The notes under the pieces are model-generated. The model saw only the letters and a list, made by a program, of their open reading frames with translations. It was not told the origin of the DNA and made no database searches. The translations under genes were made by a program, and so were the position numbers. Shown piece by piece: positions 30,081 to 50,223 of a DNA stretch of 64,000 bases (positions are counted from its first letter, which is position 1; each line of letters begins with the position of its first letter). Source of the stretch: Nitrosarchaeum sp. (GTDB lineage: Archaea; Thermoproteota; Nitrososphaeria; Nitrososphaerales; Nitrosopumilaceae); the NCBI GenBank assembly GCA_965223865.1, contig OZ245020.1, positions 224,001-288,000 of the forward strand, given 5' to 3'.

Positions 30081-30120
30081 TGCAGTTTAGAGTAGTTTTG
30101 AGTAGTTTGGTGCAGTTTTA
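30081..30120. repeat. Four imperfect 10-bp tandem repeats
   Basis: TGCAGTTTAG AGTAGTTTTG AGTAGTTTGG TGCAGTTTTA. Confidence 0.6.
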
Positions 30121-30216
30121 GAAAACATTGCAAGCATCTAGGTTAATTTTGAATTATGGAATATTATTTGCAATGATATGTTTTGCCAAAAATATTGGCT
30201 TATCTTCTGGAAAATC

Positions 30217-30468: not shown

Positions 30469-30698
30469 TATAGTCCCAATTCTTTGTTTAGCTGCTCAGT
30501 AGTGTATACTCTGCCTGCCTTGATGTCTGCTATTGCCTCTTCAATGTTTTTTATTGTTTGAGGCGAGAGTTCATCATCATAGTCTCTTTTTTGAATCAGC
30601 CTTTGGATTATCTGATCAAATGTCTCATTTGGGTATAGTTTTTGTTTTTCCAAGACATCCTTTGTTTTTTTGTCCAGTTGGATTGTGGTTCGTACCAT
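30468..30698 (-). CDS. Antitoxin (RHH-like N-terminus) of a type II TA pair
   Basis: TTIQLD...ETFDQIIQRL and IKAGRVYTTEQLNKELGL; its stop overlaps the toxin start. Confidence 0.85.
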   Translation of the reverse strand: MVRTTIQLDKKTKDVLEKQKLYPNETFDQIIQRLIQKRDYDDELSPQTIKNIEEAIADIKAGRVYTTEQLNKELGL

Positions 30699-30722
30699 GG
30701 CATACTATAGCATACCATGGTA
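30693..30722. promoter_or_regulatory. Putative TA autoregulatory operator (three 10-bp palindromic units over the start codon)
   Basis: TACCATGGCA TACTATAGCA TACCATGGTA. Confidence 0.6.
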
Positions 30723-30803
30723 TAAAAATCATTAGGTAAATTTCAGTCACATAATATCTTGAAAAAGTTGTAAAATGTACCCAGAAATGATGTTCATATA
30801 TCA

Positions 30804-32113: not shown

Positions 32114-32294
32114 CGTATGGCACCTCCTTTTCTTCTTCTTTTGCAGAATCAAGCAATACCCGTCGGACTTTGGCCTGGTGTGCCAGTAATGCATTCCTAA
32201 AGGAAGCAATCTCAAAGCCAAGCTCAAGTATTTTTTGCCGTATATTGATTAGATCACTTTGCATTATGGTCATCGTCATGACTGGCTTTTTCAT
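32106..32294 (-). CDS. Small helical protein (62 aa) upstream of the membrane nuclease
   Basis: Overlaps the next start and contains its GGAGGTG RBS. Confidence 0.55.
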   Translation of the reverse strand: MKKPVMTMTIMQSDLINIRQKILELGFEIASFRNALLAHQAKVRRVLLDSAKEEEKEVPYDE

Positions 32295-32362
32295 GACATA
32301 CTATAGTGAGCGTTTTATAAGAAAAAACAGGCACCTAAAATACGAACAGCTAGGAATGATTT

Positions 32363-33550: not shown

Positions 33551-33810
33551 TGTTAAGATGATATTTTCTAGATTTCACACAATATCTTATCTAAAACGTC
33601 AGATTAATTTAACGTGACTTTAATTATTTTTTAATAATAAATCTACTTATGACCGATTTAAAAAAGGAAACAATGTTTAAAGAAATTACGGATCTTGAAC
33701 AAATAATTTACTTTAAGCAAGAATTAGATAATAACAATAACGACAATTTGGGATTTAAATAAAGAAACAACAGAATATAATATATTTACTTCGTAGTTTA
33801 TAGCCATAAC

Positions 33811-35007
33811 ATGCTAAAAGCTAGACATAGCAACGAATTTGGTGGTAAACCAATTGATAATACATTGAATGTTTTAGTGGTTGACAATAATACACTTTTA
33901 ATCAATTTATTAGAAAAATCACTAATTCAAGATAGTGTCAATATTTCTGCAGTTACAAACATAGACGATGCAATACAGTTGCTAAAAGAGAAAATTTTTG
34001 ATGCAGTATTGTGTGATGGTCCTATTGACAACTATTCCAAAGAAACAATTCTGGAGATATTTGAACAGAACAATTTTCTTCGAGATCAAAGAATTGTACT
34101 TTTTAGTGGGTTTACACAACCTGATTTCATTGAAAAATGGAAAAGAAAAGGATTATACAGTCATATAAAAAAACCAACATCTAGAAAAAAAATATTAGAA
34201 TTTTTACAAGCAACAAAAAATGATCCCAACTTAAAAAAAGTCAATTCTCAAACTATTCATGAACAAATTAAGGAGGAAGCTACACCAGAACAGCTAGCTA
34301 AAGTAGAGGAATTAACAAAACAAATTGAAGAATTAGAATCACAATCGACAAAACCAACTCCAAGTATAGAAAGTACACACAAAGCAGAGATTGATTTAGA
34401 ATCAGCTGAACAAACTATAGAAGATGAAACGGAGGAGGAAGCTACACCAGAACAGCTAGCTAAAGTAGAGGAATTAACAAAACAAATTGAAGAATTAGAA
34501 TCACAATCGACAAAACCAACTCCAAGTATAGAAAGTACACACAAAGCAGAGATTGATTTAGAATCAGCTGAACAAACTATAGAAGATGAAACGGAGGAGG
34601 AAGCTACACCAGAACAGCTAGCTAAAGTAGAGGAATTAACAAAACAAATTGAAGAATTAGAATCACAATCGACAAAACCAACTCCAAGTATAGAAAGTAC
34701 ACACAAAGCAGAGATTGATTTAGAATCAGCTGAACAAACTACGTTTGAAACTCAATCTAATAGTGAATTTAAAAATATTTTATCTAAATTAGCTTCTATA
34801 AAAAATCAATTTCTATATAACACATCAGATACATCAGATATAGGCCACACACAAATTATTGAAGAGTTATTTAATCTTAAGAAAGAGATAGGTAAAATAA
34901 GAAGAAAAGTTTACAGATCGCATACAAAACAAAAACGTAGTAAATCTACATCAACACAAAACAAGAAAACAAAAAAACAACATTTATCTAAAAAGAAACA
35001 TAAGTAG
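33811..35007 (+). CDS. Response regulator receiver domain + acidic 54-aa tandem repeats + basic tail
   Basis: VLVVDNN...FDAVLCD...FSG...IKKP, then three EEATPEQLAKVEEL... repeats. Confidence 0.8.
   Translation: MLKARHSNEFGGKPIDNTLNVLVVDNNTLLINLLEKSLIQDSVNISAVTNIDDAIQLLKEKIFDAVLCDGPIDNYSKETILEIFEQNNFLRDQRIVLFSGFTQPDFIEKWKRKGLYSHIKKPTSRKKILEFLQATKNDPNLKKVNSQTIHEQIKEEATPEQLAKVEELTKQIEELESQSTKPTPSIESTHKAEIDLESAEQTIEDETEEEATPEQLAKVEELTKQIEELESQSTKPTPSIESTHKAEIDLESAEQTIEDETEEEATPEQLAKVEELTKQIEELESQSTKPTPSIESTHKAEIDLESAEQTTFETQSNSEFKNILSKLASIKNQFLYNTSDTSDIGHTQIIEELFNLKKEIGKIRRKVYRSHTKQKRSKSTSTQNKKTKKQHLSKKKHK
34272..34741 (+). repeat. 162-bp perfect tandem repeat, ~2.9 copies
   Basis: GCTACACCAG recurs at 34279, 34441 and 34603; the copies appear identical. 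Confidence 0.95.
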
Positions 35008-35398
35008 TTTTTATCATATGCAAGATTTGATTACACTATAAAGAAAATTTTTGCTAACAACTCTTAAATTACTTTTTATATGTAGAATGAAATGCCAATA
35101 AATCTACAATTGTTTACCAGTAGACTTTGGTTAATGTTCAATCATATCTTTTACGATTACTTCATTTTTTGAGTTTTCATTGTAATATTTTGATTATGAT
35201 GAAACGTATTTGTTAATTATAAATAGATTTAACATACGATAAAACGTCAGAAAAAGTTTTTTTGAGAATATACAAAAGATTTTGAGAAAAGAGTTTCCCA
35301 AAGATTTGAAGTTAGATAAATGTGGAAAATGAATTTTAACAGTTACTGATGTTAGATTACTAACATTTATTTTATAAAATATGTATATAATTGGAATA

Positions 35399-35794
35399 AT
35401 GAGTAAAGGTTATGATGACATATCACTTCCTACAGAAAACATAATAATCAATAAAAAATTGATGGTTTATGGTGCAATTGGTATATCAATAATAATTTTA
35501 ACAATTATTATGATTCCTCTACTTCCAAAAAGCTTGGATGATAAAATCAATATTCTTTATGATGATGCGCAAAATTATCTAAATGATGGAAATTTGTTAC
35601 AAGCTAAATTAATTTATTCAAAAATAATCGAACTAAAACCAAATGAAGAAAAGGCATGGCATGAAAAAGGAAAGATACTTGTGAGAACAAATTCCTGTAC
35701 TGAAGCAGTGAATCACTACGAGAATTATATAATAAACTTCCCAGATTCATCACGTGGCGCAGAAGGATTTGAACTTGCTAAATTGTGTAAATAG
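35399..35794 (+). CDS. Membrane-anchored TPR protein
   Basis: One TM segment, then A..Y..GN...A...Y..IIEL.P...AW..KG TPR pattern. Confidence 0.75.
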   Translation: MSKGYDDISLPTENIIINKKLMVYGAIGISIIILTIIMIPLLPKSLDDKINILYDDAQNYLNDGNLLQAKLIYSKIIELKPNEEKAWHEKGKILVRTNSCTEAVNHYENYIINFPDSSRGAEGFELAKLCK

Positions 35795-35962
35795 AATATT
35801 AAGTATGGAGAATTTTGTACTAAATATCACTAGTGGCACAAAATCAATAACCAATTAAGTTTTACAAAAGATGTACATTCTATTAGAGTTATTCAAAACA
35901 ATTGATGTCGTACCGTTGTATAACATTCATTATTACACATTGGTGTTACTAAAAGTTAAAAA

Positions 35963-36727
35963 CTATGCGGGAGTCATTTCTTCATATTCAACACTGTTAC
36001 CATTATCATCGTTATTATTTTCTAGGGGTTCAGCAGATATGGATGAGTTTAAGACATTTTTTGATATCTCAACTAAATCTTTGAATGATGTGAGGATGTG
36101 GTTTATGCTAGTAGTTAAATTAACACTATAGTTATTGACTAATGTCAATTTTGTATTATATGATTTTTCGACTTGTGAAAAGTCTTTATCTATCTTTTCT
36201 TTTTTACTAAGACAAAAACTTGTAAATTCTTCTGCTGCTTTTAGTTCAGATTCTAATCGTTCTACTGTGGTAGTCTTTCTAATTAGAGCAGGTTTTAGAG
36301 CTTCTATAGCAATTTCTGCCTCATTTGTATCAAGATTTGAAGCAATATTTGTGATATTCTCTATAGCTTGTTTTATTATATTCAGATCACTTTTTGCCAT
36401 TTCAGCTTTTTTCTGTAAATCTCTTTTTTCTATTACTGCTTTTTCTGATTCAATTGATGCTTTTCTTTTTTCATAACTTTTTTCTTGTAAGATTGATTGT
36501 AATTCATCAACTTCAGTTTTATTTTTTAATACAATATTTCTGGATTTGGTAATAGCCTGTAGTACATCATCAATACTAGCCTTAAAATAAATCTCCAATC
36601 GTTTTTCATCTGAAATTAACTGTATTTCTTTAAGGGTATTTTCAATTTCAGATAGTTGAAAATCATTAAAACGTCTATTCTCTCCTATATCATTTGATTT
36701 TGTCTCACTTACTGTATACAATTCCAC
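35963..36727 (-). CDS. Coiled-coil hypothetical protein
   Basis: 254 aa, E/K-rich heptads. Confidence 0.7.
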   Translation of the reverse strand: MELYTVSETKSNDIGENRRFNDFQLSEIENTLKEIQLISDEKRLEIYFKASIDDVLQAITKSRNIVLKNKTEVDELQSILQEKSYEKRKASIESEKAVIEKRDLQKKAEMAKSDLNIIKQAIENITNIASNLDTNEAEIAIEALKPALIRKTTTVERLESELKAAEEFTSFCLSKKEKIDKDFSQVEKSYNTKLTLVNNYSVNLTTSINHILTSFKDLVEISKNVLNSSISAEPLENNNDDNGNSVEYEEMTPA

Positions 36728-36888
36728 ATGTCTATCAATTTAACATTAATATTCTTTATTATTGTGCTCAACACGATAAGAACATTTATGTGCAACAAAA
36801 CATTTGGTTTTATCATATTCACATTTGCATCCACAATTTCTTTATGTTCAAAAGTAAAATATTATCTATTGAAACAAAATGTTGGGCT

Positions 36889-37911
36889 TTATATCTTGTA
36901 TAATCTACTTTCTGCCCAATTTGCTTGATTAACTTCAAATCTACTGCTACAGGAATTACATTCCAGTTTATGATCTAGAGTAGAGAATTTATCATTACAA
37001 TTATTGCACACATAATAATTTTCTAGCCTTTGGTAATCAACTCCAAGTATTTTTAGTTCTTTACTGCACTTAGAACATTTACCATTTACATAGTTTTTAG
37101 CAGGTTCTACGTTGCCACATTCATGATGTTCAATTAATGGTTCTTTAGAAAAAATTTTACTACTACAGGTAGGACAAGAAAAAGTAGATACTAGATTAGA
37201 AGACGAACATCGATTACATATAGGTTCATTACATGTTCCAATATTCTTTATAGTACTTGAGGTTTCCAATTCTCTTATATTTTTGTCAATGATATTTTTT
37301 TCAATTTTTAACATATCTGAAATACGATTATTACTTAGCAATCCATATGTCAATAATGAAATTATTTTTTCTTTGGTATCAGGTTGTTGTTGAGGTTTGT
37401 TAGTGATGATATTCTTTTCTTGTTTTATTTTTTCAATTACTTCTTTTAGTCTATCTAAGTTTAGTGGTTTCTGAACATAATCATAAATTCCCATGTTAAG
37501 TAGTTCTATTATCCTTTTGTCTGATTTTTCTAATGCAGATAGCAATATTATTATCGCTCGTGGATATATTTCAAAAAGCTTTGATACCATCTTCTTTGGT
37601 TGAATATCACCTAAGCTGTCACCTAACACTATAGATACAATTTTTTGTTCTTCTTTTATCAAATTTTCATAATATGCCAATCCACCATTTCCGGTACTTG
37701 CCAGATGTATCTCTTTAAAACCCAGAGTAGAAAAATACTTTTGAAGGGTAGATGAAACTGAAATACTATCCTCAATTATTAAAATCGAGTCAATACTAAA
37801 AATATTATCTTCAAGTGCATTAAGCTGAGCAATATCAATACTCTTTTTTTTTAACTGCTCAACAATGTCGATATCTTCTTGTTGTCTTTTAATAGGTGGT
37901 ATGCTTTCCAT
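36889..37911 (-). CDS. Response regulator: REC + wHTH + TackOD1-like multi-zinc-ribbon output domain
   Basis: ILIIED...DYVQKP, then CNRC, CPTC, EHHECG, CSKC, LGVDY, CNNC and CNSC. Confidence 0.8.
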   Translation of the reverse strand: MESIPPIKRQQEDIDIVEQLKKKSIDIAQLNALEDNIFSIDSILIIEDSISVSSTLQKYFSTLGFKEIHLASTGNGGLAYYENLIKEEQKIVSIVLGDSLGDIQPKKMVSKLFEIYPRAIIILLSALEKSDKRIIELLNMGIYDYVQKPLNLDRLKEVIEKIKQEKNIITNKPQQQPDTKEKIISLLTYGLLSNNRISDMLKIEKNIIDKNIRELETSSTIKNIGTCNEPICNRCSSSNLVSTFSCPTCSSKIFSKEPLIEHHECGNVEPAKNYVNGKCSKCSKELKILGVDYQRLENYYVCNNCNDKFSTLDHKLECNSCSSRFEVNQANWAESRLYKI

Positions 37912-38016
37912 GATAATTCATTATTTCCTAATTTTTTTATGTTGTGTTACTCATTATCTTCACTCTTTTAATGTTTTATATGCATTGTCAGTAATAGCAA
38001 AAAATTTTGCAAAAAA

Positions 38017-40407
38017 CTAGCTCCATTTAATGCCCTTTTTGAATACTGCTTTTAGATTAGCCTTAAATATTATAAATTTCAGTAATGGCCTATAACATAA
38101 TGCCATTATTGGCACCAACCAAACAAGATGATAATTTTTCTTAGCTGAAAGAATATTTGAGAAGAAAAATGTAGCAAATTCCATCATAATGAACAAAAGT
38201 GAAGTTAAGATTATAACATTAGACAAGCTATGAACATCAATAACACCAAATATTGAGAAGAATACCAGTCCAATGACGTACGCAACAAAGAGGATGTTCA
38301 AAACAAAATCAAACACAAACATGCTTAGTTTAGTAGGACGAGTTCTGGGTGAATTTCTTTTTGTTATGCCATGTTTTCTTAAGGTAGTATACTCTCCAAA
38401 GGCCCATCTTTCTCGTTGTTTAATCCATGCGCTTAGATTACTTGGACAATAAGTCCATGCTATTGCATCACCTAAAAATTGGATATTATTTTTACCACTA
38501 TCTTTGCGTTTAAGCATTTTTAGTGTCAGATCAAAGTCCTCAGTTATTGTATCTTTATCATACTTTCCTACACTTTCAAAGACATTTCTTCTAAAAACTC
38601 CAAAGGCTCCAGATATGATTGCAACTATAGTTGTAAATCCTAAAGTAGAGAATCTTCGCCCCAACTCCATTGCAACAAGGTATTCGTAGGATTGAAGTTT
38701 TGTAAGTAAATTATGAACAGGTCTTCCATCAGAGCCAGGATCCCCCCCAGCTATTCTTACATTTCCAGCAACAGCCATAACAGCATCGTCCTTAAAACGA
38801 TTAACAATTCGATGAAGTGACTGTGGTTCTATTACAGTGTCTCCATCCATACATAAGATAAGATCTCCTGTGGCATATACAGAACCATAATTCAGTGCTG
38901 TTGCCTTTGAACCACTAGCTTGATTGCGATGGATTAGTTTTATTAAGCCTTGATCACTAAATTTTTTAGCAATAAGATACGTATTATCTGTAGATCCATC
39001 GTCAATCACAATAATTTCTTTGTTGCTATATTCTGTTCCCAGTACAGAATTAATAGAATTTTCTAATCCTGCCTCCTCATTATGAGCAGGAATCATAATT
39101 GTAATTTTTGGGTGATAAAAAGAATCATGTAATATTTGATGTTTTGTTCTAGACGCAAAGGTTACAATAATTTTTGATATCAAAATGATATAATCAAGAG
39201 TAAGTGGAAATATCAACATTAAAATTAAGATCAGTGGGTCCCATATGAAAAATAGTTGCAACCAATCAACAAATAGTTCTGGTGATGTGTCAACAAATTG
39301 ATAAGGAATCCTCAAATTTGTGGTTGCTAAAACAGCTCCATTGTTTTTGTCTTCTATATGTAGTGTATTATAATCTGAAAGAGGTTGTTGTAAGGTATCA
39401 GTATTGATCTCCACACATAAAGTTCGGTTTCCTCTTTTGTCATTAAGCTGACCTACCTCAATTCTGTCTGAAAAATTATTTCCACTTAGAAAAATATATG
39501 GATCAGGGTTGGACACCATCTTAGTTGAACCATCAAGTCCTTCAGTCAGTTTTATGTAATCATTTTTGTCATATGATAGATTAAATGTAGATACTCTTAC
39601 CTGAAGAAAGTTTTCAAATACGGCAGTTTCAACTCGCCCTGTAGATATTCCTTTTTGACCTTCTATGTATCCAATCTTACGTGATTTATCATAGAAATCC
39701 ACAGAACAAATATCCATACCAGGTGACATATTAGACAAAGTTATACGTCCTGATGTGATGGGTGAAGCATCAGTGAAAGGTATTGCATAAAATAATTGTT
39801 CAGGAAAGATTGAAAGCCACTCATTAAATAAATTTGGATTTTGGAGTTTAATTTTTACAATTGTTTTTTGATTATCATCTCTAATTTCAATTAATCTAAT
39901 CTCATTTAGAGAAATATTGTTTGGAATTTTATGTTCACTATAATCGGAATGTGTTCTTAGTTTTCCTTCGAGTGGGATTTCTCGATAATCATTAGTGATG
40001 ATAAAGGTTGAAAGATTACTTGATTCATTTATCTGGTTATCTGAAATTATAAACTGTTCTAGTTTTAAAAACAGTTTTCCATTATCTGATAAAATTTTAG
40101 CTATACCACTTGCTTGATTATTATCTACACCTTTAAGAAATCCTAGTCTATGAATATTTTCATTGTAAGTAAATTCAGACAATTCATCTTTGTATTTATT
40201 TTCATAGTATATTCTAGAACTTTCATCCATATTTCCAAAAATTTCATATTGTTCTCTAGCTGATTTTTCAATTATTTTTGAGAAAGATAGTATATCATTA
40301 CTGTTATTACTTAGTGTTTGAGCTACACTGTTTTGTAATGGGTAAATTGCTAAAACAATCAACATGCACACAAATCCTGTAAAAGTTATTTTGACAAATA
40401 AATTCAA
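38017..40407 (-). CDS. Processive GT2 glycosyltransferase (PgaC/cellulose-synthase-like) with a large extracellular N-terminus, possibly DM13-like repeats
   Basis: IPAHNEE, DDGSTD, KATALN, DGD, TED and QRERW motifs, C-terminal TMs, and an N-terminal signal/TM plus ~350-aa extracellular region. Confidence 0.85.
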   Translation of the reverse strand: MNLFVKITFTGFVCMLIVLAIYPLQNSVAQTLSNNSNDILSFSKIIEKSAREQYEIFGNMDESSRIYYENKYKDELSEFTYNENIHRLGFLKGVDNNQASGIAKILSDNGKLFLKLEQFIISDNQINESSNLSTFIITNDYREIPLEGKLRTHSDYSEHKIPNNISLNEIRLIEIRDDNQKTIVKIKLQNPNLFNEWLSIFPEQLFYAIPFTDASPITSGRITLSNMSPGMDICSVDFYDKSRKIGYIEGQKGISTGRVETAVFENFLQVRVSTFNLSYDKNDYIKLTEGLDGSTKMVSNPDPYIFLSGNNFSDRIEVGQLNDKRGNRTLCVEINTDTLQQPLSDYNTLHIEDKNNGAVLATTNLRIPYQFVDTSPELFVDWLQLFFIWDPLILILMLIFPLTLDYIILISKIIVTFASRTKHQILHDSFYHPKITIMIPAHNEEAGLENSINSVLGTEYSNKEIIVIDDGSTDNTYLIAKKFSDQGLIKLIHRNQASGSKATALNYGSVYATGDLILCMDGDTVIEPQSLHRIVNRFKDDAVMAVAGNVRIAGGDPGSDGRPVHNLLTKLQSYEYLVAMELGRRFSTLGFTTIVAIISGAFGVFRRNVFESVGKYDKDTITEDFDLTLKMLKRKDSGKNNIQFLGDAIAWTYCPSNLSAWIKQRERWAFGEYTTLRKHGITKRNSPRTRPTKLSMFVFDFVLNILFVAYVIGLVFFSIFGVIDVHSLSNVIILTSLLFIMMEFATFFFSNILSAKKNYHLVWLVPIMALCYRPLLKFIIFKANLKAVFKKGIKWS

Positions 40408-40539
40408 TATTTGTGGTTCAAAAAGCTTGTTTATTAATTAATTAGGAAATATATAGGTAGTTCTATTTGAAAGTAATAATTTTACTTAACTATAGGTCAA
40501 TAATATTTTTAAGGCGATATTAGGGACTAAAACTAACGA

Positions 40540-41622
40540 TTGAAATTTTTAAAAGAATTTGTATTTTTGATTATGATAGTAGGTTTAGCAACTCCTGCGG
40601 GGGATGTATCTGCATTTATGTTAGGTGATGCAGATCCTTTCCTCAATAACATATGGTTGGAGCCAAGATATTTAGTACCGGGAGACATAGTTAGCATAAA
40701 CTCTTCAATATACAACCTAGGTACACAATCAACAAATTCTGTAACGGATGTAGTTACAATTGGTTATTTTTTGGATGGAGATTTAATTAAAATTGATATA
40801 CTCCCAGATATTGTTCCCGGAGAAAATAACGGAGTAAAGATTACAACAGGTCCCATATGGACTGCAATTGATGGAATTCACACTGTTACCGTAATTTTAA
40901 ATTATCATGATACTTTATCACACTTAACTGACAATCTTGAAAATAACATAATGCAAAAAGTATACTATATTGGTGATTGGGAGAATCCAAATCCACGTAT
41001 ATCAGCTGAATTATTTCAAGAATATAACCGAGATAGAGATAAGCAAAACATACAGATTACCGGTAAAGTTGATTTGCCACTAGATGTACTAAAATCAAAT
41101 CCTAAAGTCATCATACAATTTGGGGATGACGACAGTTATAATAATATAGATAACTTCAAACAACATTATACCGTTCCAATAGATCTAGATACGAGATCTT
41201 TTTATTTCAAAGAAACTCATCAATATTTTCAAACCACAATCCCCATTACTATATCCTATTCTACTGACAGAGGTGAAAGTTATGAATACAAATTACAAAC
41301 ATACCCAATCAAACTAAACGAGAATAACTCAGCTTGGATCTTACAGGAATCTACAGATAGTTTTAGATCTCAGAAATTTCTTGTGGTCATATATGATGAA
41401 TCTTATAATTTGATCAAGAAGGTTGAGACATATAATATACCTGACATAACAACAGAAAATACTGTCAATAGTTATGTTTCTGTAATACTACCAGGGGATC
41501 AACTGTATAATATGGAAGTGTATTCAGAAAGAGGAGATTTGATTTATGCATCATCAAAGTTCTTACAGGCGAATAATATAGTGATAGATGATCTAAATCA
41601 AAAATGGAGAGAATCTAATTGA
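40540..41622 (+). CDS. Secreted protein with CARDB/Ig-like domain
   Basis: Signal peptide; PGDIVSINSSIYNLG...W...G.HTVTVILN...ENN. Confidence 0.7.
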   Translation: MKFLKEFVFLIMIVGLATPAGDVSAFMLGDADPFLNNIWLEPRYLVPGDIVSINSSIYNLGTQSTNSVTDVVTIGYFLDGDLIKIDILPDIVPGENNGVKITTGPIWTAIDGIHTVTVILNYHDTLSHLTDNLENNIMQKVYYIGDWENPNPRISAELFQEYNRDRDKQNIQITGKVDLPLDVLKSNPKVIIQFGDDDSYNNIDNFKQHYTVPIDLDTRSFYFKETHQYFQTTIPITISYSTDRGESYEYKLQTYPIKLNENNSAWILQESTDSFRSQKFLVVIYDESYNLIKKVETYNIPDITTENTVNSYVSVILPGDQLYNMEVYSERGDLIYASSKFLQANNIVIDDLNQKWRESN

Positions 41623-42626
41623 GGACATCTGCTGTATTATCATCATCATTGTTGATGGTCATTATGCTTATTATGATTACACCGATTATTTCAACAGACA
41701 TTAAAAGCGCTTATGGTAGTATAACGGCTAGTAAAAATTTTTGTGGGCAATTTTCAACCCATCCTGAGTGTACAGGATGGAGAAAGATTCCTGTTATGGA
41801 TAATTTTTGGTTTTGTGAATATATAGATCTGCCATCAGTATGTAAAAATCCACCAAACCCTCAAAAAGAAATATCCCCATTAGAAGCAGACTATTGTTGC
41901 CGAATTTACGAAGATAATGATGAGACATTAAATGACCTATCTTCGCTTTATTATGATCTTGTTTTTGAGGATACAAGCAAAAAAGGAAGAGAGTTACCAG
42001 AAGCATATCCAATTAATGAGTTAGTAGTATGGACTGAAAAGGATCATTACAAGTTTAGAGATAGGGTTAATGTATATGGCAAATTTGATTTTGGAGATCC
42101 TGTTATTCAGAAAGCAAACAGGTCAGTAGATATTTTATTTAATGGAAACAAAGTAGTACCAAACTTAACTGTAGAACCAAATGGATGGTTTTCAGGATAT
42201 TTTTATATATCTGATCCTCGCTTTTATTACACCGGGATAAGTAGAATTGATGTTACATATTTTCATTCACCAACAGTGTATGATCAAGATATACGTGCAG
42301 TAGCTTCATACAAATTTACCACAGGTGGAATTCAGGAACCAAAAGATCCATTCTCAATTAAAATCAGTTTAGATAGTGAATCTGGTTTAAAAAAAAGAAT
42401 ATCCTATGAGATAGATTCTAAAAGTGCATTATCACTGCACCAAAAAACTAACAGTGTAACAAGGTTAATTAATCCTGACGGAATTGTTTTTGCGATGCCT
42501 TATATTTCAATGGATAATTTAGAACACTACATAGATGAAATTTCTAATTTTCAGACTGGAACTTACACTATTACAATGACATTAGGTGACTTTAACATTA
42601 GTAAAAGCTTTGAGAAGAAAAATTAA
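41619..42626 (+). CDS. Secreted protein with Cys-rich N-terminus and Ig-like domains
   Basis: Signal peptide, 6 Cys, VWTEKDHYKFRDRVNVYG; overlaps the upstream stop. Confidence 0.7.
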   Translation: MRTSAVLSSSLLMVIMLIMITPIISTDIKSAYGSITASKNFCGQFSTHPECTGWRKIPVMDNFWFCEYIDLPSVCKNPPNPQKEISPLEADYCCRIYEDNDETLNDLSSLYYDLVFEDTSKKGRELPEAYPINELVVWTEKDHYKFRDRVNVYGKFDFGDPVIQKANRSVDILFNGNKVVPNLTVEPNGWFSGYFYISDPRFYYTGISRIDVTYFHSPTVYDQDIRAVASYKFTTGGIQEPKDPFSIKISLDSESGLKKRISYEIDSKSALSLHQKTNSVTRLINPDGIVFAMPYISMDNLEHYIDEISNFQTGTYTITMTLGDFNISKSFEKKN

Positions 42627-42707
42627 AAATAGATAAACGATTATCACTTGTAAATATTTTCCAACATTTGTAAAGAACGTTATCATCAAAAAAGCTGAGG
42701 TAGAACA

Positions 42708-42980
42708 CTAGTTTTTTAGCACCTCTACTATTACCTCGTACGTAATTTCATCATCTGTGATGTGATGTTTTGCAATAGAATTTTCCTTAAATTTTTTATT
42801 TGTATGAACAATTCTGTATTTTAAACCGTTTAAAAGAATTGTTTGGTTTTCAAGTTTGTCAGGTAATACGTTATTTGTTTTGTCTTTGATTATTTGTATC
42901 TCATTTAGGGATCTAATCTTTGCCAGAGGTTTTCTTTTTGGGTTTTTGTCCCAAAAATCATAAAATATAATTCTAGACAT
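42708..42980 (-). CDS. Hypothetical protein
   Basis: 90-aa ATG ORF. Confidence 0.5.
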   Translation of the reverse strand: MSRIIFYDFWDKNPKRKPLAKIRSLNEIQIIKDKTNNVLPDKLENQTILLNGLKYRIVHTNKKFKENSIAKHHITDDEITYEVIVEVLKN

Positions 42981-43582
42981 GGATTTCTTAATTTATTATT
43001 TGGTTTATATGATTTCAAGTTTATTGTGCTATTTAAATAATCAATTGCTTTTTCATCTGTTTATTTTTTAGTTTTCCTGAGTGTATGTTTCTTCATTTTA
43101 TTTTTGTTAAATCTTAATTGGTTGATCAATTTTTTCTACATGTTATGCTGATGCCGGTCTCTGTTCTCTTCTTTTTCATCAAAATAGTCCATTATCTGCC
43201 ATGATCATAACCTGTACCCTATGCAAAAAGCACTACCACTAGACGTTTGCAGGTTATGGATGATGATTCTTGGCATCATAGAAAGTAATGCTAGCAGGTC
43301 AAGGAAATAAGAATTGACGAAAAAGATTGGAATTAGACTAGACAACCAATTGTTGTTATTTCATGAAATTAGTTTTAATTTACTTGTCTGATTTGATAAT
43401 TATAGTATATAAATGGACTATTTTTTGAAAATAACGGCGATGACTTGTTCATTAAATTCAACTTGGCTTGCTAAGCCATAATTTAAACAGTTTTTTTAAA
43501 ATGATAATTTCCAGTTACAATAAAGATCATTTGAGAGGGCTTCATAAAATATCTTAAATTCTACTGTTTCCAATCAGTTTCT

Positions 43583-44902
43583 GTGAGAAAGGAGATCTTT
43601 TCTGTTTTGGTTATTACGATTTTACTTTCATCTGCAATCACTCCGTTGAATATTTTGCCTGATGCCGAGGCCTTAAAATCTCAGGGCGTGGCAAGTGGCA
43701 ACTATGGTTCAGCCACAAGAGACAAGGTTTGTGGGGATAGATTATGTTCTGAAATTGAGAAGGAAGAAAAAGAATCCAAATCTGAAAAAACATCCAAAGG
43801 AACCAATAAGGATAAAGAAAAGAAAAAGAAAATTCCGCAAGAACCACAACCACAAGTTGGCCAAGTATGCACATTAGAGCACATGCCAGTATGCGGTGTT
43901 GACAACAAGACCTATGGGAATATGTGCATGCTAGAGGTTTCAGGTACAGAACTTGCATATGAGGGAGAATGCAAAAAAACAATTTCTTCTCCAATCTCTG
44001 AAGAAGTTTTACAATATACGAAAGAACCACCAATTATTGACACTCAAAAAGGATATTTTGTTACAGAGATTGCAGATGGTCTTTATTGGTTGATGGATGG
44101 AACCTACCAGACAATGTTTATGACTACGGGACAAGGAGTCATTGCAGTTGATGCCCCACAATCATTAGGTAAAAAATATCTTCAAGCAATTTCAGATGTT
44201 ACTGATGAACCTGTCACCCATGTGATATACAGTCATCCTCACACAGATCATATCGGTGCAGCTGGAATGATATTTCCTGAAGATGCCACAGTAATTGCAC
44301 AAAAACAGGCAGCAGGCCATTTAGTGATGAAAAACGATCCAAATAGACCTGCTCCAACCATATCCTTTGATGAACAGTACACACTGAAAGTTGGAAACCA
44401 GACCCTTGAGCTATACCATATAGGCAACTTTCACTCCAAGGGAGATATCATAATTTATGCACCAGAACAAAAGATTGCAATGATTGTAGACTTTTTCCAT
44501 CCCGAAGCAGCACCATTCAAAAACTTTGGGATAACTCAAGACATGGGAGTACATCTTGCAACACATGATGTTCTGTTAGAGATGTTTGATGATGACGTGT
44601 TGTTTGTTTCAGGGCATGAGTCAATACTTGGAACAAAACAACACATTCAAGAGTACAAGCAGTTTACAAATGACGTTCTAAACAATGCGTATGCGGCATT
44701 TGGCAAGGTCAACTTTGATGAGATTGTAGAGAAATATGGTTCTAACGGAAGCAGTTATGTTGTATTTAATGGGTATATGGATGCACTCTCAAATTCCTGT
44801 GTGAGTGATACGGTTGAGCAGTGGAGCGGAAAGATAGATGGCTTGGAGGTCTTTTTAGAAGACAATTGTATGACCATGGTAATTTATGCAATGGTTGACT
44901 AG
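43583..44902 (+). CDS. Secreted metallo-beta-lactamase-fold protein with Kazal-type domain
   Basis: Signal peptide, VCGDRLC motif, Kazal CTLEHMPVCGVDNKTYGNMC...EGEC, and MBL SHPHTDH...H...GH. Confidence 0.85.
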   Translation: MRKEIFSVLVITILLSSAITPLNILPDAEALKSQGVASGNYGSATRDKVCGDRLCSEIEKEEKESKSEKTSKGTNKDKEKKKKIPQEPQPQVGQVCTLEHMPVCGVDNKTYGNMCMLEVSGTELAYEGECKKTISSPISEEVLQYTKEPPIIDTQKGYFVTEIADGLYWLMDGTYQTMFMTTGQGVIAVDAPQSLGKKYLQAISDVTDEPVTHVIYSHPHTDHIGAAGMIFPEDATVIAQKQAAGHLVMKNDPNRPAPTISFDEQYTLKVGNQTLELYHIGNFHSKGDIIIYAPEQKIAMIVDFFHPEAAPFKNFGITQDMGVHLATHDVLLEMFDDDVLFVSGHESILGTKQHIQEYKQFTNDVLNNAYAAFGKVNFDEIVEKYGSNGSSYVVFNGYMDALSNSCVSDTVEQWSGKIDGLEVFLEDNCMTMVIYAMVD

Positions 44903-44904
44903 AC

Positions 44905-44961
44905 AATAGTTCACATTAGATAGAATAAAATAGTTCACATTAGATAGAATAAAACAGTTCA
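44905..44961. repeat. 24-bp tandem repeat (2 copies plus a partial)
   Basis: AATAGTTCACATTAGATAGAATAA at 44905 and 44929. Confidence 0.85.
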
Positions 44962-45079
44962 ATTCAGATATTCTTAACAAATACTTGGTAGTGGTCTAAT
45001 TTGTTAGAAACACTAGAAAAGAGATTTACTTTTTTGATCTGGATAAAATCTTTTAAATTGAGAACCATGCCTCTTAGCA

Positions 45080-46411
45080 ATGAATAGAACTCTAAAATAC
45101 TTGGCAATACTGGCTTTAGTACCACTGTTTACTGCAGGTATGACTTCAAACTACTTTACTGAGGCAGATGCTACCACCAAAAGTCAAGGCTCCAATGCGC
45201 CTGGGCGGGTGGGAGCTAATTCATACGGTTCTGCAAATAACGGAATAGTCTGCGGAGATGTTCTGTGTAAAGACTATCCTGGTGGCAGGGCAGGTTGGGA
45301 AGAAGATCAAAAGGCTCAATCTAGTACCGTAACACCACGACCTGTTCCACAAGAACGTGAGGTACCTGTAACACAAGAAACTGAAGAAGAAAAAACAGTT
45401 GCAAGTACAACAACAGTACGAGATACTTCAGAATCTAAGGATATGGGCTCAGTGCTCAAGATGTCAAGAGCAAACATTCCTGCCGAAATTCCTATGCACA
45501 TGGGATACTACAATGGTGGTGAGGTTTACTATATCATCACCGATTCCAGTGATCCAACACACGCAGATCTAATCACTGAAAATCAGGGTTGGAAAGTAGA
45601 GTTAGCTCCCCTGTTAGCAAATGCTCCGGCAGAGGCGCTATCAAAAACATACATGTTTACAAACGGCATTGAAGGCGACGGAGTACATGGATTCCAAGGA
45701 GAGGTGTTTACTAGCACACCTGCACAACCAGAAATCTACAGTGCATTGACTTCTCATGTTCACGTCACATGGAATGAGGGCAAACAACCAAGATTACTTG
45801 ATTCTGAAGAGATGGTAATGGCAGCTGCAGACAATGGCAATGTCACACTTACTGATCTTAAAGTAGTTTTGAACATGCCACAAATTGTTTGGCCAGAAGG
45901 TCAGATGATTGTAAAAGAAGACAAGACATTAACTGACGAAACACCCTATGGAGGAGGACAAGTACTTGATATCAATACGGAAGAAAAGACGGTAACTTTC
46001 ATTGCACATAGAGGCTGGGGTCCAGACGGTAGAACCATCTACTATATCGTAACTGATGCAACACCAAGCGGTCCAGCTGGAATGATGGGAGTAGTGGACG
46101 CGCCAACATCTGCCAGTCTGATTGCAAATTCAGCAGCGGTTGATCTGTTTCAGTTCAAAGATGGCCTTGCAGGCACGGGTCCTTTGGGATTTCAACCAGG
46201 CATTGCAGCTGGAGCACCAGGTGATGAAAACTATAGTCCAATGTGGAGAATCTTCATGATAGGATGGGCTGATCCTGCAAATGCTCAACTGCTTGAAACC
46301 ATAGATGACATCAATGCATACAAAGAAGCTGGTCTAATAGACATAGGTATTGCAAGGCCAATGGATAGCGATCATATCGTAAACTGTCCATTCATCGATC
46401 CGTTCCAATAA
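45080..46411 (+). CDS. Secreted protein with an internally duplicated domain (YYIxTD...YSxxW...NxP; DUF7482-like)
   Basis: Signal peptide, VCGDVLC motif and two homologous halves; T-rich terminator follows. Confidence 0.7.
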   Translation: MNRTLKYLAILALVPLFTAGMTSNYFTEADATTKSQGSNAPGRVGANSYGSANNGIVCGDVLCKDYPGGRAGWEEDQKAQSSTVTPRPVPQEREVPVTQETEEEKTVASTTTVRDTSESKDMGSVLKMSRANIPAEIPMHMGYYNGGEVYYIITDSSDPTHADLITENQGWKVELAPLLANAPAEALSKTYMFTNGIEGDGVHGFQGEVFTSTPAQPEIYSALTSHVHVTWNEGKQPRLLDSEEMVMAAADNGNVTLTDLKVVLNMPQIVWPEGQMIVKEDKTLTDETPYGGGQVLDINTEEKTVTFIAHRGWGPDGRTIYYIVTDATPSGPAGMMGVVDAPTSASLIANSAAVDLFQFKDGLAGTGPLGFQPGIAAGAPGDENYSPMWRIFMIGWADPANAQLLETIDDINAYKEAGLIDIGIARPMDSDHIVNCPFIDPFQ

Positions 46412-46653
46412 GCAGGAACACAAATCATTTTTTTATTTTTTAGGTTTTTTAAATTAACTACGTGTATGCGTGTTATGACTTCACAACACATACACGAATG
46501 AACAATTGTCTAGACAACATTAGAAGCAATCTAGCAAGATGCATGACAGACTATACAATTTAAGTAAATCTCCAAAATCAATCTCAATAATGTTCAGAAA
46601 GAAATAGAAGAAGAACTAGAAATATTCAACACATGATATTTTCCTAAAACCTG

Positions 46654-47298
46654 TCAATATTCAGTTGAATACATTGACTTGCCTGCACTTGCTGGAACAG
46701 AAGGGAACTTGTCACCTATCTGTGTCTCTGCAACCGCCGCCGCCTCACTTAATATAGCATCAGTCTCCTGTGATGACATTCCAGAATCCCCAAAGGAGTA
46801 ATCATCACCTAGTGTACCAGGCATCATGTCTCCAAGCATGTTTCCCATAGATTCTAGCTCTTGGCTTGCCTGAGGCATTATGCTGTTCATTGCAGGAACG
46901 ACTGCCTTCATCGTGTGTACTGCCGGTTGCATAGACACAATCGCATCTCCTATAGTGCTTACAGTAGATAGTCTTAACTGTGTCCTGTCTACTGCAGTTC
47001 TCATGTTTCCTACCATCTTGTTTGTCTTTCTTATTTGTGCCAGCTCGTTTGCCAGGATTTTGCTGGTACGCATATCCTTGTTTTTTTGAGCTTCTACAAT
47101 TCTATGAAATAATTTGTCATCCTTTTGATTTAACTGACTAGAAGTACTGTCTAATTTTGATATTGGTCTGTTCAGACCTCTTATTGCATGCTCCACACGT
47201 GGTTTGAGTGGTGCCTCTTTTTTGAACATGCCTGAAATCTTATCTCCAAGTCCTTCTGTGGGAGGTCTATTCCATGCTTGTCCAAAATTGGCCATCAT
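46654..47298 (-). CDS. ESCRT-III / Snf7 family protein (CdvB-like)
   Basis: PLKPRV, KDDKLFHRIVEA, LANELAQIRK, QLRLSTV...GD, MP.A..EL and AILSEA motifs. Confidence 0.88.
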   Translation of the reverse strand: MMANFGQAWNRPPTEGLGDKISGMFKKEAPLKPRVEHAIRGLNRPISKLDSTSSQLNQKDDKLFHRIVEAQKNKDMRTSKILANELAQIRKTNKMVGNMRTAVDRTQLRLSTVSTIGDAIVSMQPAVHTMKAVVPAMNSIMPQASQELESMGNMLGDMMPGTLGDDYSFGDSGMSSQETDAILSEAAAVAETQIGDKFPSVPASAGKSMYSTEY

Positions 47299-47389
47299 AA
47301 TATGATATGGAAAATTCTGATTTAGCAAACCAAGTTGAATTTAATGGACAAGTTTGATCGTTTTTCTAACTAAATTCTATCTGGTTTGC

Positions 47390-48058
47390 TCAGTCATATA
47401 CTGCCGTAGTTTTGGCATTGTTGTCTGATTCTGTATTTACTTCAGAGGGCACATCTGGAAGTCTCTCTTCTAGGTCTTTTCCTAGCATGGCATTTGCCTC
47501 TTGCAGTATGGAATCCATCTCTACTCCTGACAATGCATTTACATCAAACTGATCTGTGTTGCTTTCACCTAACGTACCAGTCATCATCTCACCTAACATT
47601 TCACTCATTTGATTTAGTTCTCCGTCTGACTCAGGCATAATTCTATCAAGGGATGGTTTTAGTGAACTTACAATGGATGCCGCAGGTTCCATAGCTATCA
47701 TTGCCTCACCAAAGTCTTCCACGGTTGTCAGTCTTAGCTTGATCTTCTCCAGTGCAAGCCTTGCGTTTTCTATCATCTTTTCTTGCTTGCGCATCTCTGC
47801 AAGTTCGGTGGCAAGGATTGATGCCTTTTGCATCTCATTATTTTTTTGTGCATCTATAATCTTCTCAAATACTGACTGGTTTTGCTGTTGCATCTTTTGG
47901 TACATGGAATCTAGTTTGGTCAAAGGTATATTTAGCTGCTTTATTGCCTCTATGATTCTTGGCTTTAGTGGGGCTTCCTTGCGCATCAGATGACGCAGTT
48001 TTTGGCTTGTAGAGTGTGATGAGGAACGTTGCCAGTTCTTTTCAAAAAAATGCCCCAT
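47390..48058 (-). CDS. ESCRT-III / Snf7 family protein (CdvB-like), tandem paralogue
   Basis: PLKPRI, FEKIIDA, LATELAEMRK, KLRLTTVEDFGE and SILQEA motifs. Confidence 0.88.
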   Translation of the reverse strand: MGHFFEKNWQRSSSHSTSQKLRHLMRKEAPLKPRIIEAIKQLNIPLTKLDSMYQKMQQQNQSVFEKIIDAQKNNEMQKASILATELAEMRKQEKMIENARLALEKIKLRLTTVEDFGEAMIAMEPAASIVSSLKPSLDRIMPESDGELNQMSEMLGEMMTGTLGESNTDQFDVNALSGVEMDSILQEANAMLGKDLEERLPDVPSEVNTESDNNAKTTAVYD

Positions 48059-48347
48059 GTCATGCGTCAGAGATTATCTTTTAAGTCACGCAAGTAAACC
48101 AAATTTGATTTAGTTGATCGTTATGTTGATTTTCAGTATCCAGAAATTTAGTATTCTCGTAATCGTCAATTTTATATCCTCATATGTCCCTCATGGTGTG
48201 AGTTTCAATACATGCATGCAACAAGTACTATCCTACTATCTTCTTAGCCACATTCTATTTTGACCAGGTGTTCTTTTCGATCCTGTTGTCTTTTGTGACT
48301 TTTTCTTATTTAATTGTAGATAATTTTCATTATGTATTGATTTATTC

Positions 48348-48618
48348 ATGGATTCAATTGGGAATCATGGGATTTAGAACCCATAATTCATAGAAAACCA
48401 AAATCTAGAACTACGTCAAAAACAAAAACTGTATCAAAATCAGCTTCGCCTACAAAAAAGTGATTAAAACAAGGAAAAAATCAACTGCTTCAAAAACAAA
48501 AAATCCAGCTGCTACCAGAAAAAAATCAACAACTAGCGACAAAAGACGTGCTACTTCAAAAACAAAACCAAAGACAACAAGCAGAAAAACCAATTCTAAG
48601 AACACAAGACGAAGATAG
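48348..48618 (+). pseudogene. Degraded Lys/Ser/Thr/Arg-rich basic protein
   Basis: Frames ...RKPKSRTTSKTKTVSKSASPTKK* and ...KTRKKSTASKTKNPAATRKKSTT...RRR* join across an A-run frameshift. Confidence 0.45.
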
Positions 48619-48849
48619 ATTCTGGTTAAATCTATTTTTTCTATATGTGTCTGAAACTCATTCAGATCAATATTACTCAGTTAATACTTGAATAAGATTG
48701 GACAGTGGCATGTCAAAAGCAAACAAATCCACAACGTTAGTTGTCAAAACCACTGCCCTAGGCATCTATTATGTCATTTAAAGATCGATCTGAATTTCAG
48801 GTATAGGTCATGCTTAGATTCATAACATGCTGATTTTGCTTTCTGTCAT

Positions 48850-49068
48850 ATGGTCTGTAAGGGAACCTGCACTAGGTACAAGGCAGAAAAACCTGGCCAA
48901 TTTGGCAGTAGGTATGAACACGGGCAGAAACGATGCTCAATATGCGATGTCTTTGTGAATTGGGATGGAAAAAAGTGCCCATGTTGTGGAATGACCTTGA
49001 GAACAAGACCAAAAGGGACCCAAACAAGGGCATATCTTGCAGAGATAAGAAATGTCAAGAGAATCTAA
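48850..49068 (+). CDS. Cys-rich zinc-finger protein
   Basis: CKGTC...RY..GQKRCSIC...CPCCG..LRTRP, a pattern I recognise from thaumarchaeal small proteins. Confidence 0.75.
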   Translation: MVCKGTCTRYKAEKPGQFGSRYEHGQKRCSICDVFVNWDGKKCPCCGMTLRTRPKGTQTRAYLAEIRNVKRI

Positions 49069-49120
49069 TGTAATGCTTAAATGCAAATTTTGCAAATCAA
49101 ATCACTAAAATGAAGTTTGG

Positions 49121-49400
49121 TTGTTAACCAGTCGATTGGTCAAGGTGGAATTGACGCCATTGATGTATTTGATCTTTGTATTTACCATGTTCTTTAGTTG
49201 CTCATGTGGAATGCTTGTACCAAAACATCATAGATTCCTAGAACATGTATTACAACTGAAATATACGGTTGCTTTTGAGCTCTTTTATTACACCATTTCT
49301 TTTTGTCTCATTACATGTTAACAAAACAAACAATATGTTATCATTTTTTTGACTTTGATGAGCCTGTACTATGTTTCTAAACAGTTAAGAGATTTTCTAC
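49121..49400 (-). pseudogene. Frameshifted duplicate of the Lrp/AsnC gene at 29781-30026 plus its upstream region
   Basis: Colinear similarity from GGTCAAGGTGGAATTGAC to GTTAAGAGATTTTCTA, with 4-bp and 1-bp deletions. Confidence 0.8.
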
Positions 49401-49532
49401 ATACTATCATTGGATTACTTATATGCTGTACAACATAAATTGTGATAAAATTACTTTTTGCATTTTTCGTTTGAAATTAATAGATACTTAAAACCTATGA
49501 ATTATTAATTATGGCATAAGACTTGACGATTT

Positions 49533-49718
49533 GTGAATGAATCTATTATCAGAGATTTGGAAGAAAAAGACCTTGAAAATGGCTTTCTTGAATCCTTAAA
49601 ATCATTGACAACGGTCGGAGACATTGACCCTTCTGATGCAATACAGAGATTCAGGGAAATCAGTTCAGACTCAAACTATGTAATCAAAGTAGCCGAAGTT
49701 GACGGAAAAATTGTAGGT
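49533..49718 (+). pseudogene. Truncated GNAT (glucosamine-6-phosphate N-acetyltransferase-like), N-terminal half
   Basis: IIRDLEEKDLENGFLESL...VAEVDGKIVG, then abruptly reads antisense integrase sequence. Confidence 0.75.
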
Positions 49719-50081
49719 GCCCTGTCACTGCCAGTCTTTTTTGCATGTGGGATTATCTTGGATATCTTTGACCAGTTTATTCCATCTTCAACGTCATTCA
49801 TCTCAAAAAAGTGCTTTAGTGCAGCTCTTGTCTGCTGTAGGGTAGAACCGCTAACCTTGGACTTGCGCTCCTCAATGTAATCTATAATCATGTGCTGAAC
49901 AGCCTCTTGGGATTCTTTTTTGCCTTTTGAAGTAACTTGTCAGCTGTCATGTCATTGTGAAATTCCAAGAACTGCACAAGCTTTTTACAGTACGACTCTT
50001 TTGTGATTCTGAATGAAATCCCTTTAGGAAGTTCCTGACTGACTTGCTGTTGATGTTTTCTTGGATCTCTTGTGGAATCAT
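49712..50081 (-). pseudogene. Tyrosine integrase N-terminal fragment (2 frameshifts, catalytic domain deleted)
   Basis: ...TKESYCKKLVQFLEF...IIDYIEE...LKHFFEMNDV..INWSKISKIIP...DRAPT; lies directly downstream of the tRNA 3' end. Confidence 0.75.
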
Positions 50082-50138
50082 TTTAGAACAATATTTCTCC
50101 ACATGTCAAAATATTAAGTATTTCCACTCTATATGTAG

Positions 50139-50223
50139 TGCGGGAGGTGGGATTTGAACCCACGAACTCCTAGAAGATAAGGATCTGAACCTTACGCCGT
50201 TGACCAGGCTGGGCGACTCCCGC
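50139..50223 (-). tRNA. tRNA-Leu(CAG)
   Basis: GCGGGAG acceptor stem, anticodon arm TAAGG-TTCAGAT-CCTTA, long variable arm and GTTCAAATC T-loop. Confidence 0.93.

Follow-up and report, generated by a model that had tools for sequence, protein, structure and literature searches.

Two papers on Thaumarchaeota treat three CdvB paralogues whose separate roles are unclear (PMC3684127, PMC8970359), and one of them describes two of the three in Nitrosopumilus maritimus as ~50% identical, with each ~30% identical to the third (PMC3684127). Integrative elements of these archaea are described as forming arrays through re-use of one site and as carrying stress-related or auxiliary cargo (PMC6563490). 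Here, we describe two tandem CdvB-like ESCRT-III genes, hereafter A and B, in a 64,000-nucleotide stretch of a Nitrosarchaeum sp. genome (GCA_965223865.1, contig OZ245020.1, positions 224,001 to 288,000 of the forward strand). This whole stretch is termed the window and corresponds to G000:C1:224001-288000, where G000 is the genome under study. We favour, with some reserve, the reading that A and B form a two-gene accessory ESCRT-III cassette of the flexible genome, carried here as island cargo and more probably used for membrane remodelling outside division. A full-text literature search, with subscription journals outside its scope, together with term look-ups in PMC6563490, PMC10936438 and PMC5797428, found no paper on island-borne or element-linked CdvB genes in these archaea.

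Gene A (46654..47298, minus strand; 213/214 aa) was identified by Pfam Snf7 and orthologue alignment, and gene B (47390..48058, minus strand; 222 aa) by Pfam Snf7, a family profile and an AlphaFold2 (AF2) model. The original prediction had placed two adjacent, apparently intact and clearly diverged Snf7-family genes here, and each part of this description held: both open reading frames (ORFs) are present on the same strand and exceed the Pfam threshold, neither contains an internal stop, and the two proteins share only 40% identity over 201 residues spanning the whole core. Against Snf7 (PF03357; gathering score 27.3), A scored 44.1 bits (E 2e-11) and B 31.8 bits (E 1e-7). The ORF listing gave B as 47390-48058(-) and A as 46654-47328(-), starting from a TTG at 47328. 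Alignment of the A orthologues in G006, G352, G401, L074 and L076, which are 79–92% identical and all begin with M(A/T)(N/S)F, moved the start to an ATG pair at 47298/47295 (MMANFGQ/MANFGQ) and made the upstream TTG unlikely.

A profile built from 18 B-family sequences matched PDB 9s97, "Cell division protein B2", over its full length (E 1e-33; residues 5-213 on 7-214), and also matched CdvB chain 9s9j and CHMP2A (7zcg). An AF2 model of B from the same number of sequences was poor (predicted local distance difference test, pLDDT, 59.7) and was replaced by a 77-sequence model. The latter shows the five-helix ESCRT-III layout, with helices at 31-72, 76-112, 116-140, 144-162 and 181-199 and a pLDDT of 71-94 in the core (31-162). 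Foldseek searches of the PDB with this model returned CdvB2 filament or S. islandicus CdvB chains as all of the top 11 matches (E<=1e-4), followed by IST1, CHMP1B and CHMP3. Based on the Pfam, profile and AF2/Foldseek matches to CdvB2 and CdvB, membership of A and B in the ESCRT-III/Snf7 family is secure, and A is predicted to adopt the fold of B from their identity across the core. The whole NCBIfam CdvB1/B2 equivalog model NF041005 aligned with the two proteins, at 132.5 and 129.7 bits against a cut-off of 350, so that neither is classed as an equivalog; the NCBIfam CdvB model gave 59.8 and 78.1 bits for A and B against a cut-off of 370. Both proteins end shortly past a C-terminal proline motif and lack the CdvA-binding winged-helix domain of crenarchaeal CdvB, a domain missing in all Thaumarchaeota according to PMC8970359.

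We then placed the pair relative to the other paralogues. This genome encodes six Snf7-type genes: three core paralogues (C1:1411965, C1:343790 and C1:318777), A, B, and a third accessory copy at C1:1716918. An IQ-TREE phylogeny of 67 rows, drawn from 12 genomes and 17 database orthologues of B and leaving out three short rows (G006_L041, 141 aa; G352_L047, 95 aa; P0020, 129 aa), resolved three core clades typed by the three core genes and represented in every relative placed. A, B and C1:1716918 fell together in one accessory clade (support 100/99), which branches from the comb of core type III, the most conserved core type. Within it, B sits on a long stem of 0.91 (support 100/100), and A groups with seven others in an A-like clade of eight rows (support 100/99). 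Neither gene belongs to a core orthogroup, both lying outside all three core clades. Among 40 relatives searched, three matches were found in 17/24 same-family genomes; the highest identity to any core paralogue in relatives was 48% for A and 42% for B, and no match to B exceeded 42% apart from a 64-residue fragment in G006. The core types of C1:343790 and C1:318777 lie ~24-37 kb apart in at least nine genomes. The three core clades appear to match the N. maritimus paralogues, a clade-to-locus-tag mapping drawn from the published description; of the closely related pair of core types, one is the type from which the accessory clade diverges. The label "accessory" given by the original prediction is thus borne out by the paralogue count and the phylogeny: A and B form part of a separate clade with patchy presence, three core paralogues are encoded elsewhere, and the locus carries no CdvB gene in the island-free relatives G003 and G005, so A and B are neither the genome's sole orthologues of core paralogues nor syntenic at this place in island-free relatives.

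As a separate observation on the core set, C1:318777-319427 and its orthologues share 96-100% protein identity across genera. Synonymous divergence (dS) of this type is unusually low, at 0.05-0.4 compared with 0.2 to >3 in the other core paralogues, which suggests very strong constraint or codon bias.

B and A occur as a conserved two-gene unit. B precedes A on the same strand at a distance of 90-103 nt in five genomes, and an A-type gene follows B in all seven loci with visible downstream DNA (the window, G352, G401, L074, L076, L071 and L072). The G352 locus is the same DNA as metagenome contig L073, and L075, which ends at B, was left uncounted. The unit is rare: taken as lower bounds, B orthologues were found in 3/401 species genomes of the family including this one (3/246 of high quality), the other two, G352 and G401, belonging to another genus; A-type genes (at least 76% identity) occurred in 8/401, and any member of the accessory clade (E<=1e-58 with A) in 22/401. 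Among 5.8 billion database proteins, B had 19 orthologue clusters at 66-84% identity, whose named labels were all Nitrosopumilus, and A had ~42 clusters at 76% identity or above. A search of genome contigs with B gave only two spurious bacterial matches.

This distribution bears on the possibility that A and B are extra cytokinesis subunits, namely sub-functionalised duplicates acting in the normal Cdv ring that descended vertically with many losses and lie in a variable region incidentally. Such a history would suit their descent from a core division paralogue, their retention of all family features including the CdvC-docking motif, and the position of A at the same place in G000 and G006, where its dS of 0.56 compared with 0.14-0.89 for core genes fits vertical descent within the genus. 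Crenarchaeal CdvB1 and CdvB2 are likewise paralogues used jointly in division (PMC8970359). However, A-type genes are missing from 393/401 and B from 398/401 family genomes, and division can therefore do without both; the closest relative, G004, has neither gene, and the cassette occupies three unrelated contexts with clean empty sites. We consider this explanation unlikely, although it is the most credible of the alternatives.

We next turn to the setting of the cassette in this genome. A composite island of 31.6 kb (18502..50138) lies between GatE and tRNA-Leu(CAG) (50138..50223, minus strand; called by ARAGORN and Rfam), the integration target. The proximal attachment (att) site is the 3′ terminal 17 nt of this tRNA (50139..50155). 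A distal att-like copy, TGCGGGAAGTGGGATTT (18485..18501, plus strand; 16/17 matches), directly follows the GatE stop codon and is the sole other match to the 17-mer in the window at up to three mismatches, with 0.05 expected by chance. Two island-free genomes of the same genus, G003 and G005, have tRNA-Leu (window 50133) directly against the end of GatE (window 18501), which identifies 18502-50138 as an insertion at the tRNA-Leu(CAG) 3′ end; the distal copy sits exactly at the border given by these empty sites. The same degenerate copy is found beside GatE in G004 and G006, and since three species have it in common, the first integration is older than their split. The site also has a described counterpart: reverse-complementing the 17-mer of this locus gives AAATCCCACCTCCCGCA, the att site listed for NitDev-E4 at tRNA-Leu(TAG) of Nitrosotalea (PMC6563490, supplement file 3, row 54).

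Immediately beside the tRNA lies a frameshifted tyrosine-integrase pseudogene (49709..50102, minus strand), which retains aa 1-124 of 389 and is cut at 49709. It was delineated by tblastn with the integrase of G006, which is intact at the same position and directly beside A; this query matched the stump at aa 55-124 with 90% identity and, in another frame, at aa 20-61 with 79% identity. The same tool detected no other copy of that integrase in this genome. By blastn, 33740-43065 and 49709-57140 match G004 at 91-93%, with 1.6 kb in between in G004, so that a 6.6-kb sub-segment (43066..49708) is absent from this closest relative (91-95% nucleotide identity). The sub-segment carries a metallo-beta-lactamase (MBL)/Kazal protein, a DUF7482 protein, A, B, a lysine-rich basic ORF, a zinc-ribbon ORF, an AsnC-like remnant and an acetyltransferase-like fragment. 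G004 is also without 18522 to ~31780; because these two pieces are missing there, sequence comparison indicates a composite island put together from three or more pieces. G004 has kept only part of the island, and that of G006 has different content. The original prediction of an integrated but decaying island was upheld on both counts, the former by the att repeat, the tRNA 3′ end and the empty sites, and the latter by the integrase stump, a fragmentary ORF (49533-49708) and a degenerate Lrp/AsnC-like copy. Pfam scans of the island found no capsid, packaging or conjugation domain, and a PHROG search with 30 island ORFs matched only integrase and one family of unknown function. No IMG/VR contig encoded a relative of B.

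Three distinct genomic contexts of the cassette were seen, and relatives show the corresponding empty sites. In G352, a 4.95-kb element with an integrase fragment, a zinc-ribbon homologue and a degenerate att copy, likewise lacking in relatives, lies downstream of tRNA-Ser(GCT), and 150 nt beyond it is a separate 3,468-bp insertion consisting of an IS4/5 transposase, B and A. This insertion is absent from seven relatives, in which the flanks are adjacent, as checked at the sequence level in three. No clean target-site duplication was seen around it, nor was a tRNA-Ser att repeat found downstream of A, and the comparison shows that the cassette is a separate insertion. Two unknown genes flank the accessory CdvB genes in G401 and G407. 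Several genomes share recurrent companions of the accessory CdvB genes, comprising the zinc-ribbon ORF, ORFs of 70-82 aa and 72-73 aa, and an AsnC-type regulator; such small genes also surround the third accessory copy, C1:1716918.

Two further arrangements of A-type genes were observed. G376 contains a 2,914-bp segment twice (L082 9538-12451 and L083 9495-12407; 99.97% identical, ~410 kb apart) that encodes an A-like CdvB, an 82-aa ORF, an AsnC-type regulator and a 73-aa ORF, and the same module surrounds C1:1716918. In G006, G001 and G407, from two genera, A-type CdvB genes lie with an unknown protein of 286-289 aa, a receiver protein, a HAMP/Cache histidine kinase and a large fibronectin-type-III protein (L025 9317-16198, L085 8009-14492 and L087 1599-8627); this block is absent from the genome under study.

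Linkage to integrases, att sites, an insertion sequence and small element genes (zinc ribbon, 70-76-aa ORFs and AsnC-type regulators) in several genomes raises the question of a selfish tool, whereby an element-encoded ESCRT-III would hijack the host CdvC to make DNA-carrying vesicles that spread the element, or would perturb division in its favour. The duplicated four-gene module of G376, with 99.97% identity over 2,914 bp, would accord with this, as would reports that ESCRT-dependent vesicles of Sulfolobus carry and transfer DNA (10.1101/2021.02.09.430445) and that vesicle-like structures occur in the cultured ammonia-oxidising archaeon Nitrosarchaeum haohaiensis (PMC12097351). Nonetheless, the cassette has no replication, packaging, capsid or conjugation gene, the PHROG and IMG/VR searches yielded no viral family besides integrase and no contig with a B relative, and the persistence of the cassette under purifying selection, despite the dead integrase of its island, points to an advantage for the host. 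We regard a selfish role as decidedly improbable. About equally doubtful is a bolder version, in which elements carry a portable, self-sufficient budding module made of a nucleator (B, with its Gly2-Phe-Phe N-terminus) and a filament subunit (A), borrow the host CdvC, and export their DNA in vesicles. If true, marine ammonia oxidisers would have a virus-free, ESCRT-driven means of passing on genes, and an archaeal mobile element would be seen to encode ESCRT-III instead of hijacking it.

Both A and B are under purifying selection, as pairwise comparison with orthologues gave ratios of non-synonymous to synonymous divergence (dN/dS) of 0.07-0.16 for A and 0.085-0.21 for B at a dS of ~1. Their upstream DNA is conserved as well. 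In the B-A spacer (47299..47389, minus strand), a block upstream of A comprises AAAACGATCAA (~47354-47364) and ATTAAATTCAACTT (~47332-47345) and recurs in 5/6 A upstream regions. The region upstream of B (48059..48127, minus strand) contains the block AACATAAYGATCAACTAAATCAA (~48105-48127) and a TATA-like TTAAA(A/G) box (~48073-48084), ~20 nt upstream of the ATG, in 5/5 B upstream regions from different genomes. The A and B blocks have an ACGATCA core in common, ~57-66 nt before the start codon, and the B upstream region is a putative promoter. A shared regulon defined by an A(A/T)AA(C/T)GATCA box was not supported genome-wide (48 sites compared with 38-58 in five shuffles). This box also occurs 22-68 nt upstream of two more zinc-ribbon family members (M[VT]C[KQ]GTC.RYK...) at G000:C1:649306 and C1:1873169. 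That A and B are non-functional remnants of a decaying island, with frames open by chance, is thereby made very improbable: the decay of neighbouring island genes, the broken B of G006 and the splitting of both genes in L071 and L072 point in that direction, but both frames are intact here, dN/dS stays at 0.07-0.21 across genera at a dS of ~1, and the upstream blocks are kept in 5/5 (B) and 5/6 (A) genomes. In L071 (1859-3249) and L072 (454-1844), B and A are each divided into two ORFs, which could reflect real pseudogenisation or assembly error.

We further examined the termini of the two proteins. B begins with the aromatic motif MG(H/N)FF.K.W, in which M1, G2, F4, F5, K7 and W9 are invariant in 18/18 sequences, and A with MANFGQ.W, in which M1, F4 and W8 are invariant in 10/10. 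The original prediction had suggested a search for C-terminal MIM motifs, and a proline motif with the MIM2 core (hydrophobic-P-x-hydrophobic-P) is present in both proteins, as LPDVP in B and FPSVP (KFPSVP) in A. Across 77 Nitrosopumilales CdvB paralogues, its first proline is invariant and its second at least 90% conserved. B fits the MIM2 regular expression given in PMC8970359, in which x is charged; A has Ser at x, like the aligned CdvB2 chain. The window encodes neither cdvA nor cdvC, as had been noted, and the only CdvA (~1.633 Mb) and the only CdvC (MIT+AAA+Vps4_C; ~1.128 Mb) lie elsewhere on C1. An AAA protein within the window (13055-15241) was rejected as a Vps4 candidate, being of the two-AAA-domain CDC48 type. 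One CdvC/Vps4_C gene was present in each of 6/6 genomes checked, whatever the number of accessory copies; with the conserved proline motif, this makes the predicted use of the host Vps4/CdvC by A and B plausible.

We propose that duplication of the core thaumarchaeal CdvB paralogue with the highest conservation gave rise to A and B, and that in this genome the cassette is carried by a composite integrative island at tRNA-Leu(CAG) that is old and no longer mobile. Each protein would be made from its own promoter, bind membrane through the conserved N-terminal aromatic motif and polymerise through the five-helix ESCRT-III core, with B probably serving as an optional partner or nucleator of A. 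The single CdvC/Vps4 would then remodel this polymer, docking on the hydrophobic-P-x-hydrophobic-P motif at the C-terminus. As the likeliest role we see membrane remodelling separate from the core division ring, for instance repair of the envelope or budding of vesicles to the outside, useful to some strains and dispensable to others. A role outside division is favoured because most relatives divide without these genes and because the genes travel with the flexible genome; the two-component system and surface protein next to A-type genes in three genomes may be set beside this.

Several points weigh against this proposal of an island-borne accessory cassette. Given the age of the island and its dead integrase in this genome, "mobile" can be meant here only historically. 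The G352 cassette lies beside, not inside, the att-bounded element, and at the G401 locus, as in G407, there is no integrase or tRNA within 10 kb. An A-type gene occurs without B in G001, G372, G376 and G407 (the last syntenic with the G401 locus), and G006 has an intact A next to a decaying B with an internal deletion, so that an A-B heteropolymer would not be obligatory. Between genera, the dS of A and B is 0.9-1.25 compared with 0.2-3.3 for core paralogues, values that do not separate transfer from vertical descent with loss; dS was accordingly set aside as a transfer clock, given that core paralogues alone span 0.2 to >3 when the same genomes are compared. GC content was likewise rejected as a foreign signature because A (0.43) and B (0.42), while above the genome (0.34), equal core paralogue III (0.42). 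Finally, the prevalence figures are minimum values since islands assemble poorly and are under-sampled in metagenome-assembled genomes. The suggestion that the subunits are mobile therefore stands in part. Past mobility is indicated by the patchy distribution, the three contexts with empty sites and the tRNA/att/integrase setting, but the island's own integrase is now dead. The presence/absence comparison, in which G003 and G005 have neither island nor CdvB at the locus and G004 is without A and B, is in line with accessory status. Overall, sequence comparisons support describing the genes as accessory and once mobile, and as a variant of a known family.

Other features of the island surround the cassette. 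At 48850..49068 (plus strand) is a zinc-ribbon ORF of 72 aa, a recurrent companion of these elements without a Pfam or PHROG family match, whose homologues lie in the G352 tRNA-Ser element (67% identity), beside A in L076, and in the islands of G001, G372 and G004. Upstream of it, 48460-48618 holds a candidate 52-aa lysine/threonine/serine-rich ORF with three copies of a 17-nt repeat. At 49138..49406 is a degenerate second copy of a small Lrp/AsnC-like gene, forming a ~270-nt direct repeat (85-92% identical, 19.3 kb spacing) with the intact copy at 29781-30026 (Pfam AsnC_trans_reg, E 1e-4). The ORF fragment at 49533-49708 reads by eye as a GNAT acetyltransferase N-terminus, with no Pfam match at E<=1e-4. 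An ORF at 43583-44902 joins a Kazal-type inhibitor domain and a metallo-beta-lactamase-fold domain behind an N-terminus that by eye is hydrophobic and signal-peptide-like; it is not called a resistance gene because its NCBIfam beta-lactamase matches are all far below cut-offs. A perfect 24-nt tandem duplication (44905-44952) occupies the spacer between the MBL/Kazal and DUF7482 genes.

Further from the cassette, the island segment 18648-29608 encodes an aminotransferase (18648-20054), TBP (23405-23938), a thermosome subunit (27047-28702) and Hsp20 (29078-29608). For these four, the rest of the genome and G003-G006 offer best nucleotide matches of only 73-81% identity, which marks them as additional copies rather than displaced core genes. 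At 30217-30698, an ORF with a ParE-toxin domain and an upstream DUF7557 ORF are likely a toxin-antitoxin pair. Three tandem 162-nt units (34249-34741; 95% identity), an array also seen in G004, lie within a 398-aa response-regulator ORF (33811-35007). In the core part of the window, 11214-11525 encodes the archaeal signal recognition particle RNA (Rfam RF01857, 114 bits).

To the three core CdvB types, this locus adds a fourth layer, that of fast-evolving accessory ESCRT-III genes coming and going with the flexible genome, in which subfamily B is found only alongside its partner A. This genome and its sister species G004, as well as G401 and G407, form natural presence/absence pairs that can be used to test non-division ESCRT-III in abundant marine ammonia oxidisers, including vesicles, envelope repair and interplay with mobile elements.

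Compared with the thaumarchaeal integrative elements (PMC6563490), the island shares the tRNA-Leu 3′ end as target and a tyrosine recombinase. It differs from them in having only an integrase stump and in its composite build of three or more pieces. In bacteria, PspA and LiaH represent the ESCRT-III superfamily in membrane repair, under two-component control (LiaRS-LiaH). A-type genes resemble these in lying beside a histidine kinase, a receiver and a fibronectin-type surface protein in G006, G001 and G407; in contrast, no PspA_IM30 was found in the Pfam scan at E<=1, fold matches to Vipp1 were of low probability, and the kinase block is absent here. Paired eukaryotic ESCRT-III paralogues act as one polymer recycled by Vps4. 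The CHMP2A-CHMP3 and IST1-CHMP1B copolymers would be functional analogues only, each likewise combining two diverged ESCRT-III paralogues; eukaryotic pair structures are among the weaker Foldseek matches to B, at 13-17% identity. With the core CdvB proteins of N. maritimus (Nmar_0816, Nmar_0029 and Nmar_0061), A and B share family, length, and the N-terminal aromatic and C-terminal proline motifs, but A and B are tandem and missing from most genomes. Crenarchaeal CdvB1 and CdvB2 (PDB 9s97-9s99, "CdvB2 filament") differ in that identity is only ~30% and in that A and B, which fall below the equivalog cut-off, are thaumarchaeal, accessory and island-borne. Nevertheless, they show full-length homology to A and B, with a five-helix core and no winged helix, and the two-proline motif aligns, as FPSLPS in the CdvB2 chain, LPEVPS in the B-family profile and FPSVP in A.

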